The notes under the pieces are model-generated. The model saw nothing but the letters and a program-made list of their open reading frames with translations. It did not search any database and was not told the origin of the DNA. Positions 4,342-51,293 of a stretch of DNA of 51,293 nt are shown here, piece by piece (position 1 is the stretch's first letter; every line of letters begins with the position of its first letter). The stretch is taken from the NCBI GenBank assembly GCA_964521325.1, contig CAZFRL010000004.1, positions 1-51,293 of the forward strand. Direction: 5' to 3'. The stretch comes from an uncultured Dehalococcoidales bacterium. GTDB taxonomy: Bacteria > Chloroflexota > Dehalococcoidia > Dehalococcoidales > CAZFRL01. Both the position numbers and the translations under genes were made by a program.

Positions 4342-4530
4342 TATTTTATCCTCTCGACCAAAGTCTTAATCTGGGAATTATTGTAACACATTCCATTTCC
4401 CAATGGCACACCCGAGGTTGGTTATCGGGGGAAGATAGTTAAGGAGTACATCATGTTAAGCGAACACCGAGAAGCCTTGCCACCACCGCCTCAGGCTTTC
4501 AGCCAAAGCCTTACCAGACGCGCTGTAACT

Positions 4531-4556
4531 AATAAGGGGAGCTTTTTCAGCTCCCC
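4531..4556 (-). terminator. Intrinsic terminator-like hairpin downstream of mazF
   Basis: GGGGAGCT-5 nt-AGCTCCCC 8-bp stem followed by TTATT on the minus strand. Confidence 0.5.
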
Positions 4557-4586
4557 CAGGTCTCCACTATCTTTACTACTTCACCA

Positions 4587-4634
4587 GCCGTCAAGAATAA
4601 AGGCTTCGCCCGACTTTCAGTCGTTCTTGACTGC
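4587..4634. repeat. Nested palindrome (three-way hairpin) at island border
   Basis: GTCAAGAA(4590-4597)...TTCTTGAC(4624-4631) encloses GGC-TTC-GCC and CGAC-TTTCA-GTCG hairpins. Confidence 0.55.
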
Positions 4635-4714
4635 TTTTTAATATTTCCTTTTAAAATCAATATTCAACAATCACATTTTAAGTGGAAAGTCAAAAGTTTA
4701 TAAGAAATATGCCA

Positions 4715-5062
4715 TTAATGCGAAGAAATATCTAAGCTTACATTAAGTGCTCTATCGACTTCTAACACCTTTGAGTCAGACAGTTTCCCTATTCTAGTGA
4801 CTAATCGACTTTGATTTATAGTAAGAAGTTGCTCGAGTAAAACCGTACTATCTTTTGGTAGGCCACTCTCTTGAGCAGAAATTTCTACATGAAAAGGATA
4901 CGACGCCTTTTGCTTAGATGCTATTGCTGCTATTATAGTTGTGCTAGAATTCCTATTTCCGGTATCGTTCTGAATAATTAAGGCGGGTCTTCGCCCGCCC
5001 TGTTCACTACCTCTGGGAGTTCCGAAATCTACCCAATATATCTCACCTCGCCGCACAGGCAT
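4715..5062 (-). CDS. mazF: MazF/PemK-family endoribonuclease toxin (EndoA-like)
   Basis: RGEIYWVDF, GSEQGGRRPALIIQND, VLLEQLLTI match Bacillus-type MazF; residue 48 is Ala rather than Thr. Confidence 0.92.
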   Translation of the reverse strand: MPVRRGEIYWVDFGTPRGSEQGGRRPALIIQNDTGNRNSSTTIIAAIASKQKASYPFHVEISAQESGLPKDSTVLLEQLLTINQSRLVTRIGKLSDSKVLEVDRALNVSLDISSH

Positions 5063-5401
5063 TTAGCTCTCCCAATCTGGCCATTCCTCCAATGCAATAT
5101 GCATGGATTCCTCTGCTAATTTACTGTTTTCAATTGCCATGGCTTTGTAACCAACCGTAAGTTCATCTATTTTAGGCAATTCTATATCTGAAGGAATCTC
5201 AATGTTTGTTTCATGCGAAGGTGAATACCAAGGTAAGGTTGCTACGTCAATTAGAAGATATCCTCCAGTAGTCGCAACAGCTGATATTCCTAAAGTTGTA
5301 AAATTGGTTCTCTGATATCCTGTTGAAAGTCCTGCAGCGGTAGACCTTATTACCTTTGCAACTGTTCCAATTTCTTTTGCTTCTACATTAACTACTTTCA
5401 T
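5063..5401 (-). CDS. Putative MazE-like antitoxin with atypical S/T/G/A-rich N-terminus
   Basis: ATG 5401 overlaps the upstream TAA (TAATG); its TAA abuts the mazF ATG; C-terminal ELTVGYKAMAIENSKLAEE resembles the MazF-binding GYxxMAxxNxxxxxE helix of Firmicute MazE. Confidence 0.6.
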   Translation of the reverse strand: MKVVNVEAKEIGTVAKVIRSTAAGLSTGYQRTNFTTLGISAVATTGGYLLIDVATLPWYSPSHETNIEIPSDIELPKIDELTVGYKAMAIENSKLAEESMHIALEEWPDWES

Positions 5402-6441
5402 TAAATCACCTTCCCATCTTCGGCAGCTACCCAACCTTGAGATAAAGTTCTCACTAGTGCTGGAGTATCTACACCTTGCATTCCAGCAAGTGTACCTCGC
5501 GCTCTAAAAATCACATTTTCCGTTACAAATATGTGCTGACATAACTTACCATTGCATATTGACTCAACAGCAGCTCTCTCATAATGTATCGTTTTGTTTT
5601 GTTCTGTACCTAAGTCATGCTCTGCACTAAAAGGTTTTGTTAATTTTAACCAATTTTCATAGTCTTTATACAGTTCCCACATAATCCTATCAATTTCCGC
5701 AGATGGTTTTTTGATATCTATTTTAATGTCATTCTCAGCTTCCGAACGTCCAATCAAATAGTTATGTGTTGGAAGTTCATGAGTAAGTTCCTTAACAATA
5801 TGGTCTATCTTATCCTCATCTTGTAAATGCATTGACAATAAACGTTTTGCTAAGGAGCTAGTTTGTTCCCTCGCTCTATAAACTGCTCCTAATGCTAAAG
5901 GATGCACCTTATCAGCAAGAATATTTATTACTTCAACCATTGATTCTTCATTCTCTAAACCAATTTCAGTACGTGCTAAGTCTAAGAATCCGACCATATC
6001 TTCAACGCTAACTGGTAGTAGTGTAGCCAGTCCTGGTTGTTGCACACCTGGAGCTTGTGGATTAAATGGTGATGATACTGACGGGTCAATAGGGCTTAGA
6101 AATCCATGTGTACCCATGATAATATTGTCAGCACCCAATGCTATAAGTGTTCCGCAACTCAGAGCACGAAATGGTACTAAAACAGAGATTTTTTCACTAT
6201 ACTGCCGGAGAAGACTTACTAAGCCCCAGCCAACTATCGTATCCCCTCCTGGTGTATAAAGGAATAGAGCCAAATCCTCTGTTGGTTTAATGTTTGATAA
6301 ATGCTCTGATACTAAAGGCAAAATATCAGGAGCAATTCTTGTCTCCATTCCTTGACGGTCTCCTGTTACTACCGTAAGAACTCTTGCCTTTAAGTTCTTC
6401 TCAAGTTTCTCAATTAGTTCTTTTCTTTCCTGAACTGCCAA
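5401..6441 (-). CDS. ClpP/crotonase-fold serine protease (SDH_sah-like family)
   Basis: TPGG, ALSCGTLIALGAD (Ser nucleophile), LSPIDP, PTHNYLI motifs; TTG 6441 chosen because an AGGAG SD and a promoter lie between it and the track start 6486. Confidence 0.85.
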   Translation of the reverse strand: MAVQERKELIEKLEKNLKARVLTVVTGDRQGMETRIAPDILPLVSEHLSNIKPTEDLALFLYTPGGDTIVGWGLVSLLRQYSEKISVLVPFRALSCGTLIALGADNIIMGTHGFLSPIDPSVSSPFNPQAPGVQQPGLATLLPVSVEDMVGFLDLARTEIGLENEESMVEVINILADKVHPLALGAVYRAREQTSSLAKRLLSMHLQDEDKIDHIVKELTHELPTHNYLIGRSEAENDIKIDIKKPSAEIDRIMWELYKDYENWLKLTKPFSAEHDLGTEQNKTIHYERAAVESICNGKLCQHIFVTENVIFRARGTLAGMQGVDTPALVRTLSQGWVAAEDGKVI

Positions 6442-6466
6442 ATTTCTACTCCTATATAGGGCTAGA

Positions 6467-6493
6467 ATTATACCACAATATGTCAAATGTCAA
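6467..6493 (-). promoter_or_regulatory. Promoter of protease-antitoxin-toxin operon
   Basis: TTGACA-TTTGACATATTGTGG-TATAAT: extended -10 (TGn) with a 15-nt spacer and tandem TTGACA. Confidence 0.55.
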
Positions 6494-6949
6494 CCATTCA
6501 CTGACGCATTTTCATTCTATCACGTATCCCTTACCGTTTACTACACTATATCTCAAATCATGACCGTCATTTAAACATTCAGTTGCTAACATCTTTGTTA
6601 ACATACTTCTTGGTATAATTAGTTATTAGACATTATTATACTTGACAATACAAAGCTAACTCCCATATTGAATGGTATCAAACACTACTTATTCTGACTC
6701 GTTTGGATAATACTTCTGTATTGTTTTATTAAAACTTCAAACTCCGACACCTCTTTAAGAACATCTAAAGTTTTCATTTGCTCCACCTATCCTTTTCACC
6801 ATATAATCGTTATAGCATATAGAGGACATGGTGATTGTGTAATACTTAATGTACATTCGTCAATACTCTATATGCACAGGGTAATACCGTAATTGCAGCT
6901 AGACCTAGGCACGGAGTGAGCTTGAGGTTTAGCTGACGGAGGTTATCAG

Positions 6950-7498
6950 GTGCAGAATGAGGAGAGCCTTGTCCACCGTGCGCAACAGCGAGAGACGGAG
7001 GCTTTTGCCCAGTTATATGAGAATTACTTCGATAAGATTTATCGTTATGTGGTTTTCAAGATAGGAAACAGGACAGAGGCAGAGGACTTGACACAACAGG
7101 TCTTTCTAAATGCACTCCAGTCTATCTCTTCCTTCAAGTGGAAGGGGAGGCCCTTTTCTGCCTGGCTATTCCGTATTGCCCATAACCAGATAGTTGACTA
7201 CCTGAGAAAGAAAACAAGGCAGGCTACTACGCCCCTTGACAAGTCGACGGTGATTAGTGATAGCAACCCCCAGCTGGCAATTGAGCGGAAGCTGGATATT
7301 GAGCAGCTACTTTTGGCAACCAAGCGGCTGACTAAAGCACAGCGGGAGGTGATTTCTTTACGCTTTGCTGGTGAGCTGCCTATTGCCGAGGTAGCCAAGG
7401 TTATGGACAAAAGTGAGGGAGCAGTAAAGGCGTTGCAGCACAGTGCAATAGTAGCCCTGCGTAAAACACTAGTGGTGACCAACAATGACAGCAAGTAA
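6950..7498 (+). CDS. ECF RNA polymerase sigma factor (SigW/RpoE-like)
   Basis: Region 2 DKIYRYV...AEDLTQQVF...FSAWLFRIAHN; region 4 LTKAQREVISLRF...IAEVAKVM...VKALQHSA; GGAGG SD with GTG start. Confidence 0.93.
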   Translation: MQNEESLVHRAQQRETEAFAQLYENYFDKIYRYVVFKIGNRTEAEDLTQQVFLNALQSISSFKWKGRPFSAWLFRIAHNQIVDYLRKKTRQATTPLDKSTVISDSNPQLAIERKLDIEQLLLATKRLTKAQREVISLRFAGELPIAEVAKVMDKSEGAVKALQHSAIVALRKTLVVTNNDSK

Positions 7499-40461: not shown

Positions 40462-40816
40462 GGGGACGCGTGGGTTCGACAGGGGAAGTATGTTGCAGGA
40501 TTGCAAGCTGAGGTGCCGCTACCCTCATTAAACAAGTGGCAAAAAATAACCGACGAATCTCAATTAGTTTATGCAGCCTAATTAAATAGGTTGCACGCTC
40601 AACCTGACCCCACCTCAATGGGTTGGGATTGGGTGCCGAAAGATTGAGGTGCCACCGCTTTGACGTCGATAAGGGCGGTGAAAGAATTGTCGACTGGCTT
40701 GGCTAAACTCGGTCAGCAGAGGCTAGCTAGGTAAGATAAAAAAGCTGACTAAGCTTGTAGGATATTCTGGGCAGCTTCTTCTGGACGGGGAGTTCAACCC
40801 TCCCCCGTCTCCACCA
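40462..40816 (+). ncRNA. ssrA: tmRNA
   Basis: 5' GGGGACGCGTGGGTTCGAC; 3' GGGAG-TTCAACC-CTCCC-CGTCTCCACCA; tag ORF 40552-40581 reads (A)DESQLVYAA*. Confidence 0.95.
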
Positions 40817-51241: not shown

Positions 51242-51293
51242 TGGAGCGGAAGACGAGATTCGAACTCGCGACCCTCTCCTTGGCAAGGAGATG
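51242..51293 (-). tRNA. tRNA-Gly(GCC), 5' part beyond window edge
   Basis: Minus strand TCTCC-TTGCCAA-GGAGA anticodon arm, GCGAG-TTCGAAT-CTCGT T-arm, CCA end. Confidence 0.92.

Follow-up and report, generated by a model that had tools for sequence, protein, structure and literature searches.

Toxin–antitoxin biology has long been divided over how antitoxins are removed and over whether toxin release is ever under true regulation, and the host proteases Lon and Clp are shared and pleiotropic as well as difficult to manipulate. In toxin–antitoxin–chaperone (TAC) systems, a SecB-like chaperone acts on the chaperone-addiction segment of the antitoxin, and CalpT, a component of the CalpL–CalpT–CalpS system, contains a MazF-like fold. 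AimX of phage phi3T has a region in common with MazE of B. subtilis, namely the C-terminus by which MazE binds MazF, and it binds and inactivates MazF (PMC10769878). The subject of the present analysis is a three-gene module on the minus strand of a 51,293-nt stretch of DNA from an uncultured Dehalococcoidales bacterium (the window; all coordinates are window positions), which encodes a ClpP-fold serine protease of the SDH type, a small middle protein that is a candidate antitoxin, and a toxin of the MazF family. From the comparison of this locus with its relatives, a three-component toxin–antitoxin–protease module is proposed, in which the protease would act on an N-terminal module of the antitoxin; a probability of roughly 0.55 is assigned to this reading. 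The initial annotation of the window had described the three genes and had suggested that the protease is dedicated to the antitoxin. Its observation is confirmed, and its interpretation is partly supported.

The tight coupling of the three genes is read directly in the sequence. The stop codon TAA of the protease gene (5403-5401) and the ATG of the middle gene (5401-5399) have one base in common, which gives the TAATG overlap, and the TAA of the middle gene (5065-5063) directly abuts the ATG of the MazF gene (5062-5060), all as annotated. Conservation of this gene order in other genomes had been set as a test of the initial proposal, and it was found. In total, 99 loci around relatives of the window protease, which are designated by L-numbers, were fetched from genomes and metagenomes, and extraction of the genes downstream of each protease yielded 61 distinct complete triples. 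Given enough DNA 3' of the protease gene, a gene for ~100-115 amino acids overlapping or abutting the protease stop codon is encountered, followed by a third small gene. Exceptions are L033 and L059, which are toxin-less, L092, whose middle gene is truncated, and L090, whose middle gene is atypical and undetected by phmmer. The named hosts are mostly Dehalococcoidia, but Anaerolineae, Desulfobacteraceae, Myxococcota, and a metagenome-assembled genome of Pseudomonadota are also represented. With the closest loci, L010 and L020, which give identical alignments and may be one sequence, the window shares 91% DNA identity across 4651-6429 only; since the DNA homology to the closest relatives ends at the cassette borders, the cassette moves as a unit, and its genomic contexts differ. 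Its neighbors in other loci include integrases, transposases, a Prim-Pol element, a DUF499 gene, and ordinary housekeeping genes. Neither flanking direct repeats nor target-site duplications were found around the cassette, no relatives were found in the viral contigs of IMG/VR, and none of the three proteins gave a significant match to the defense-system models of PADLOC-DB 2.0.

Clustering of the third genes across the 61 triples resulted in six classes. Bacillus-type MazF (PF02452) makes up class 1 with 38 loci, divergent PemK proteins (E 7e-11 and 3e-7) form class 4 with four loci, and a bona fide ParE (E 1.8e-11) is encoded at the single locus of class 6, L095. Class 2, with 10 loci, is a family of 90-100 amino acids without a Pfam match, whose profile aligns to that of ParE (hhalign probability 86%, E 5e-6). 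Uncharacterized families constitute class 3 (102-113 amino acids; L016, L018, L088, L089, L093, and L094), which carries the motif PLYxIxLPLxYNDG, and class 5 (166 amino acids; L067 and L097). For classes 2 and 3, no family was found in Pfam, NCBIfam, PADLOC, and PHROGs, and profile searches of the PDB were not significant; class 5 is without a match in Pfam and NCBIfam and hits one PHROG of unknown function only (phrog_4575, E 8.7e-08). The class-3 and class-5 families are candidates for new toxins. The relatedness of the proteases does not track the toxin class. The protease of the ParE locus L095 is 77% identical to a MazF-class protease, that of the class-5 locus L067 shares 71% identity with one of the MazF class but only 56% with its counterpart at the other class-5 locus, and the proteases of the class-2 loci L069 and L079 are nearer to MazF-class proteases than to other class-2 ones. 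From this it follows that repeated exchange of toxins has taken place on a common chassis.

The middle protein has a bipartite organization. In an alignment of 37 middle proteins from all toxin classes, a common N-terminal module with the consensus T-x-G-L-x-S-x-Y-Q-x-T ... T-G-G ... L-P is followed by a variable linker and then by a C-terminus that is conserved within a toxin class only. The N-terminal module is recognizable in all six toxin classes, being degenerate, with the motif not found, in class 4 and in L090. The alignments thus indicate that the protease and the N-terminal module of the antitoxin co-occur while the C-terminus and the toxin are exchanged. As the module travels with the protease across toxin swaps, it would be the N-terminal module, not the toxin, that is the conserved partner of the protease. 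For the middle protein of the window, an AlphaFold2 model predicts residues 1-76 to be disordered (predicted local distance difference test (pLDDT) <50) and helices within residues 80-106 at a pLDDT of 70-80. The protein belongs to no family in Pfam, NCBIfam, PADLOC, or PHROGs, and a search of the 37 middle proteins for Pfam domains returned none, including no DNA-binding domain of the MazE type (ribbon-helix-helix or AbrB-type). The family is small and fast-evolving, with four relatives retrieved by a word-indexed search, 16 by a profile, and 18 representatives by an exhaustive profile search; its members were therefore collected from the DNA adjoining protease genes. With the middle protein alone as query, loci with a protease upstream are recovered again, and wherever the flanking DNA sufficed to check, its homologues adjoin a protease.

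The initial annotation had also likened the C-terminus of the middle protein to the MazF-binding helix of MazE. This likeness holds at the motif level for MazE and AimX, but the canonical DNA-binding domain that would complete a MazE is absent. The consensus of the C-terminus in MazF-class loci is DELAxGYxAMAxENSLLAEESLPxALExWPxWE. When a profile of this region was compared with all PDB chains, the best match was AimX of phage phi3T (8ANV_C, EEMAKGYEEMAAINSIIAQE; E 0.012), and hhalign placed the profile on residues 54-72 of B. subtilis MazE (RDLMRRGYMEMAKINLNIS; E 0.0016, probability 16%), the MazE sequence having been confirmed against 4ME7_E. Only the C-terminal profile gave such a match; a phmmer search of the PDB with the whole middle protein returned nothing meaningful. 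Four partner-binding residues of AimX are shared with MazE, as seen in the structure of AimX with phi3T_93 and in a model of AimX with MazF (PMC10769878). Among them, Tyr18 and Met21 are identical in the profile alignment, and Met14 is conservatively exchanged for Leu.

The protease of the window matches SDH_protease (PF01972) with 55.8 bits (E 4.6e-15; Pfam cut-off 31.3) over profile positions 37-160 of 286. Against the NCBIfam equivalog NF047768 it scores 72 bits, so that the cut-off of 250 is not reached; the enzyme is a distinct SDH subfamily with an extra C-terminal domain. The annotated motifs ALSCGTL, TPGG, and THNY are all present, and Ser96 (ALSCGTL), Asp120, Asp149, and His227 (PTHNY) are invariant in 70 distinct proteases of 46-100% identity; the assignment of the Asp that completes the Ser/Asp/His triad is a prediction from sequence. 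In the AlphaFold2 model of the protease (pLDDT 78), for which the best folds found by Foldseek are ClpP and SppA (probability 1.0, E ~1e-4), an additional C-terminal three-stranded beta domain comprises residues ~283-342, and the segment 123-153 is conserved but of low model confidence. With its strictly kept catalytic set and its ClpP/SppA-like fold, the protease looks active. Nothing in the sequence or in the Pfam and NCBIfam scans is suggestive of a signal peptide or of an ATPase partner, no search having been aimed at either. Relatives of the protease amount to at least 1676 clusters, and among the best 120 the full-length identity is 59-94%. A solo serine protease of the SDH type, with 36% identity across 92% of the query, is encoded by the E. 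coli phage-plasmid NZ_CP081704.1 (L104, 2229-3224). It is located between the Q antiterminator and the holin/lysis genes on the opposite strand, which is a typical moron position, and is without an antitoxin/toxin partner.

The identity of the third gene of the window as mazF is supported by a match to PemK_toxin (PF02452; E 2.4e-34, 118 bits, cut-off 23.1), its closest solved relatives being the MazF proteins of S. aureus and B. subtilis (2MF2, 4MZM, and 4ME7; E ~6e-30 to 4e-29). Missed by the initial annotation was the residue at the position of the catalytic Thr48 (B. subtilis numbering). It is Ala in the window MazF alone and Thr in the other 37 of the 38 class-1 homologues, while Arg25 is kept in all 38, the window included. 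The codon concerned is GCA (4919-4921) in the window and ACA in the closest loci L010 and L020. In B. subtilis MazF, the exchange T48A abolishes RNase activity and toxicity (PMC10769878), and it severely reduces the activity of B. cereus MazF (PMC7354611). Because of Ala at this position and the effect of T48A on the B. subtilis enzyme, the window MazF is probably disarmed or attenuated, though it is a member of the MazF family by descent. An assembly error is disfavored as the source of the exchange, since the exact protein is on record on three contigs, the assemblies of which are perhaps not independent, and Thr48Ala is probably a real allele. The protease and the antitoxin of the window appear intact. 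In L033 and L059, the protease and the antitoxin are kept and the third gene is absent; L106 encodes an N-terminally truncated PemK of 88 amino acids, compared with 114 amino acids in the near-identical L107. The disarmed MazF of the window is in line with these cases of toxin loss and truncation.

For the intact module the following scenario is proposed. The toxin, which is MazF in the window and other proteins in relatives, would be neutralized by the C-terminal helix of the middle protein. The conserved disordered N-terminal module of ~40 residues would replace the DNA-binding domain of a normal MazE and would serve as the handle by which the antitoxin is recognized and cut by the co-encoded, ATP-independent ClpP-fold SDH protease. 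Transcriptional autoregulation of the antitoxin would have been traded for post-translational control, and the module would carry its own antitoxin turnover, without need of host Lon or ClpXP, and would work in any host. The toxin would be freed once the supply of antitoxin stops or once the protease is stimulated. A chamber protease without an unfoldase handles unstructured segments only, and the predicted lack of structure makes the N-terminal module suitable for cleavage of the antitoxin through it; together with the strictly conserved Ser/Asp/His set, the simplest reading would be that the protease cuts the antitoxin via this module. Binding and cleavage of the module by the protease, as well as the direction of the effect, that is, release of the toxin, are predicted from sequence comparison. 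Constitutive turnover, with an addiction logic in which any block of gene expression would free the toxin, and cleavage gated by a cue such as infection, which is the idea of the initial annotation, are rated about equally. A more far-reaching version may be put forward tentatively, in which the N-terminal module is a portable degron and the normally latent protease is switched on by an infection cue, so that the antitoxin would be destroyed and whichever toxin is present unleashed, amounting to protease-gated abortive infection.

Several points weigh against cleavage of the antitoxin through its N-terminal module. Protection or maturation of the antitoxin by the protease would produce the same comparative pattern. 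The model of the middle protein is of low confidence overall (pLDDT 47), and the similarities of its C-terminus to MazE and AimX are short and, with the E-values and the hhalign probability given above, statistically modest. Distant SDH proteases occur alone, which means that the protease fold is not tied to toxin modules generally and that the coupling to a toxin module is a property of this protease clade. The loss of the toxin in the two relatives L033 and L059 suggests that some copies are decaying, and the copy of the window itself contains a MazF that is probably inactive. The initial proposal of a dedicated protease is supported by the specific coupling of the protease to the middle protein, whose N-terminal module it accompanies across toxin swaps; the toxin at this locus is probably disarmed.

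Among the rival explanations, a TAC-like role of the SDH protein has to be considered, which would bind the N-terminal module to stabilize, fold, or process the antitoxin, the toxin being freed when the protease is titrated or inhibited. The modular pattern is the same as in TAC, where a third component is linked to many toxin families via a conserved antitoxin extension, and the N-terminal module is predicted to be disordered when alone. In addition, a helix peptide of ~50 residues, AimX, suffices to block MazF, and the active antitoxin could be a C-terminal fragment released by processing. The strictly conserved Ser/Asp/His set argues, however, for catalysis over mere binding, and there is no indication of a masking of the C-terminal helix by the disordered N-terminus; a TAC-like role is regarded as unlikely. 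Retention of protease and antitoxin in the toxin-less L059 is predicted neither by such a role nor by cleavage of the antitoxin.

The protease might also have its real substrate elsewhere, be it a phage protein, a host protein, or the toxin, in which case the N-terminal module would be a tether or a pseudosubstrate inhibitor that restrains the protease, and one bifunctional inhibitor would hold two effectors, the protease and the toxin. A pseudosubstrate would be consistent with a linear motif that is conserved within a disordered segment, solo relatives of the protease are found in the prophage moron position, and the protease weakly resembles ClpP-related phage head-maturation proteases (NCBIfam NF045542, E 6e-8; PHROG head maturation protease, E 2e-7). 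The matches of the protease in phage records are distant ClpP/SppA-like proteins only, no relatives were found in viral contigs, and as the toxin varies and the protease does not, the toxin is an unlikely conserved substrate; a substrate outside the antitoxin is considered quite improbable. Coincidental adjacency of an ordinary MazEF-like pair and an unrelated protease gene could be advocated on the grounds that the middle protein is without a recognized family and that the protease family also occurs alone. It is effectively excluded by the overlapping stop and start codons, by the occurrence of the arrangement at ~60 loci in several phyla and different genomic contexts, and by the fact that the protease and the N-terminal module of the antitoxin stay together across toxin swaps. 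Cleavage of the antitoxin through its N-terminal module is thus retained as the preferred reading, and the features of the window that bear on it are compiled in the table.

Features of the protease–antitoxin–toxin module in the window
Feature	Position	Strand	Remarks
Promoter	6467..6493	-	TTGACA (6493-6488), 15-nt spacer, TATAAT (6472-6467), preceded by TGG (extended -10); read from sequence
SDH-type ClpP-fold serine protease, 347 amino acids	5401..6444	-	PF01972 match; TTG start, most likely at 6444
Protease Ser96	6157-6159	-	Invariant residue
Protease Asp120	6085-6087	-	Invariant residue
Protease His227	5764-5766	-	Invariant residue
Middle protein, bipartite antitoxin candidate, 112 amino acids	5063..5401	-	Start overlaps protease stop (TAATG)
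Conserved N-terminal module of the middle protein, residues 21-57	5231..5341	-	T-A-A-G-L-S-T-G-Y-Q ... T-T-G-G ... L-P in the window
Candidate toxin-neutralizing C-terminal segment of the middle protein, residues 76-112	5066..5176	-	D-E-L-x-x-G-Y-K-A-M-A-x-E-N-x-x-L-A-E-E ... W-P-x-W-E
MazF/PemK endoribonuclease, 115 amino acids	4715..5062	-	PF02452 match; ATG abuts middle-gene stop
Structured ~110-nt element 3' of the toxin gene	4528..4637	-	Ends in a terminator-like hairpin, 4535-4557 (terminator scan)

The promoter that the initial annotation had placed ahead of the operon has two perfect hexamers, a short spacer, and a TGn extended -10, and is judged to be strong; the automatic promoter scan, which allows spacers of 16-18 nt only, missed it. 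The most likely start of the protease gene is the TTG at 6444, which is located behind AGGAG and agrees with the N-termini of homologues. The TTG at 6486 was rejected as a start codon because of its overlap with the promoter and because the homologues start at the position that corresponds to 6444. Many related operons are preceded by the extended -10 sequence TGTGnTATAAT, which often has TTGACA at a distance of 8 nt on its upstream side. This arrangement of TTGACA, 8 nt, and TATAAT, with TGTG directly before the -10, is seen upstream of the protease gene in L011, L029, L032, L037, L045, L049, and others. As TTGACA at this distance is too near to TATAAT for a -35 region, it may lie outside the core promoter and represent a conserved regulatory site. 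In the window, the ribosome-binding site of the protease gene falls within an imperfect palindrome (TTCTAGCCCTATATAGGAGTAGAA, coding strand) at 6444-6467, which could act as an operator or as a hairpin sequestering that site; the palindrome is not conserved in L010.

At the other end of the operon, the structured element is folded into several stems plus the terminator hairpin (-39.3 kcal/mol, z -4.1). It is 86% identical to positions 2036-2144 of L077, where it lies immediately downstream of an operon whose toxin belongs to another class, and between the two copies a compensatory change from G-C to A-T is observed in the long stem. The element is absent from the closest locus L010, and an Rfam search in and around the operon gave no match, including for this element. 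While the hairpin probably terminates the operon, membership of the element in the module is uncertain. The AT-rich island described by the initial annotation is evident from a G+C content of 0.34-0.41 over 4500-7000 versus 0.47-0.52 in the flanks, and the cassette is flanked, as annotated, by a gene for a GNAT (rimI-like) acetyltransferase and an ECF sigma/anti-sigma pair. Elsewhere in the window, a tmRNA gene with the tag peptide DESQLVYAA (40462-40816, plus strand; Rfam 157.8 bits) and a tRNA gene, the 5' part of which is cut off by the window end (51245-51293, minus strand), were identified.

The family-level finding of a modular chassis with plug-in toxins is of more interest than the single locus of the window. 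If the module encodes its own antitoxin-directed protease, the dispute about antitoxin removal would become directly testable with three genes and one Ser-to-Ala mutant. The N-terminal module may be a compact, transferable protease-recognition tag, and at least two uncharacterized toxin candidates emerge from the recurrent exchange of toxins on a single protease/antitoxin chassis. Such mobile modules are carried by reduced-genome uncultured Dehalococcoidia. If the reading as an infection-gated degron were true, a new family of protease-gated abortive-infection systems would be at hand, built of toxin, antitoxin, and protease with plug-in toxins.

The arrangement of protease, antitoxin, and toxin appears to be an undescribed tripartite toxin–antitoxin design. 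In a full-text literature search, no description of a toxin–antitoxin pair accompanied by a protease of the SDH or ClpP-like type was found, and neither a ClpP/SDH-fold protease nor the present N-terminal module is used by MazEF, TAC/CmdTAC, Panacea, CalpL/CalpT, or ImmA/IrrE–Xre. To the MazEF systems of the Bacillus/Staphylococcus type (EndoA/EndoAI; PDB 4ME7, 4MDX, 2MF2), the window is linked by a close toxin relative, by an antitoxin gene immediately upstream, and by an antitoxin C-terminus with a G-Y-x-x-M-A-x-x-N helix motif aligning to MazE residues 54-72. Unlike in these systems, the antitoxin is without a ribbon-helix-helix domain and has the conserved disordered module instead, the protease gene is translationally coupled upstream, and the MazF of the window has Ala at Thr48. 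AimX and YosL of phage phi3T are MazE mimics that bind MazF (PMC10769878), and among solved structures AimX matches the C-terminal profile best; however, AimX is a free phage peptide of 51 amino acids that disarms host MazF, whereas the helix considered here forms the C-terminal half of an operon-encoded, protease-linked antitoxin.

With TAC and CmdTAC, the module shares the number of three genes and a third component that pairs with several unrelated toxin families via a conserved antitoxin extension apart from the toxin-binding part. The likeness is one of logic, not ancestry. In the module described here, a ClpP-fold serine protease (PF01972) with an intact catalytic set takes the place of a SecB-like chaperone as third component, the extension is N-terminal and not C-terminal, and its effect is expected to be destabilizing, in contrast to the protective one in TAC. 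One conserved antitoxin-side module combined with many unrelated toxins is also the hallmark of Panacea (DUF4065; PMC8832971). There, a folded domain is part of the neutralizing antitoxin, whereas here a short disordered module is combined with a separate protease, and the variable C-terminus would neutralize; in a Pfam search of the 37 middle proteins, no sequence relationship to Panacea was found. The CalpL–CalpT–CalpS system of type III CRISPR with its Lon-SAVED protease (10.1101/2021.12.06.471393) and the ImmA/IrrE (COG2856)–Xre systems employ a Lon or a Zn-metallopeptidase in place of the ClpP/SDH fold, and their input signals, cyclic oligoadenylate and DNA damage, respectively, are known, while the protease of the present module is without a sensor domain. 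What these systems would have in common with it is an operon-encoded protease together with a small inhibitor, the cleavage of which releases the effector, as is proposed here by analogy.

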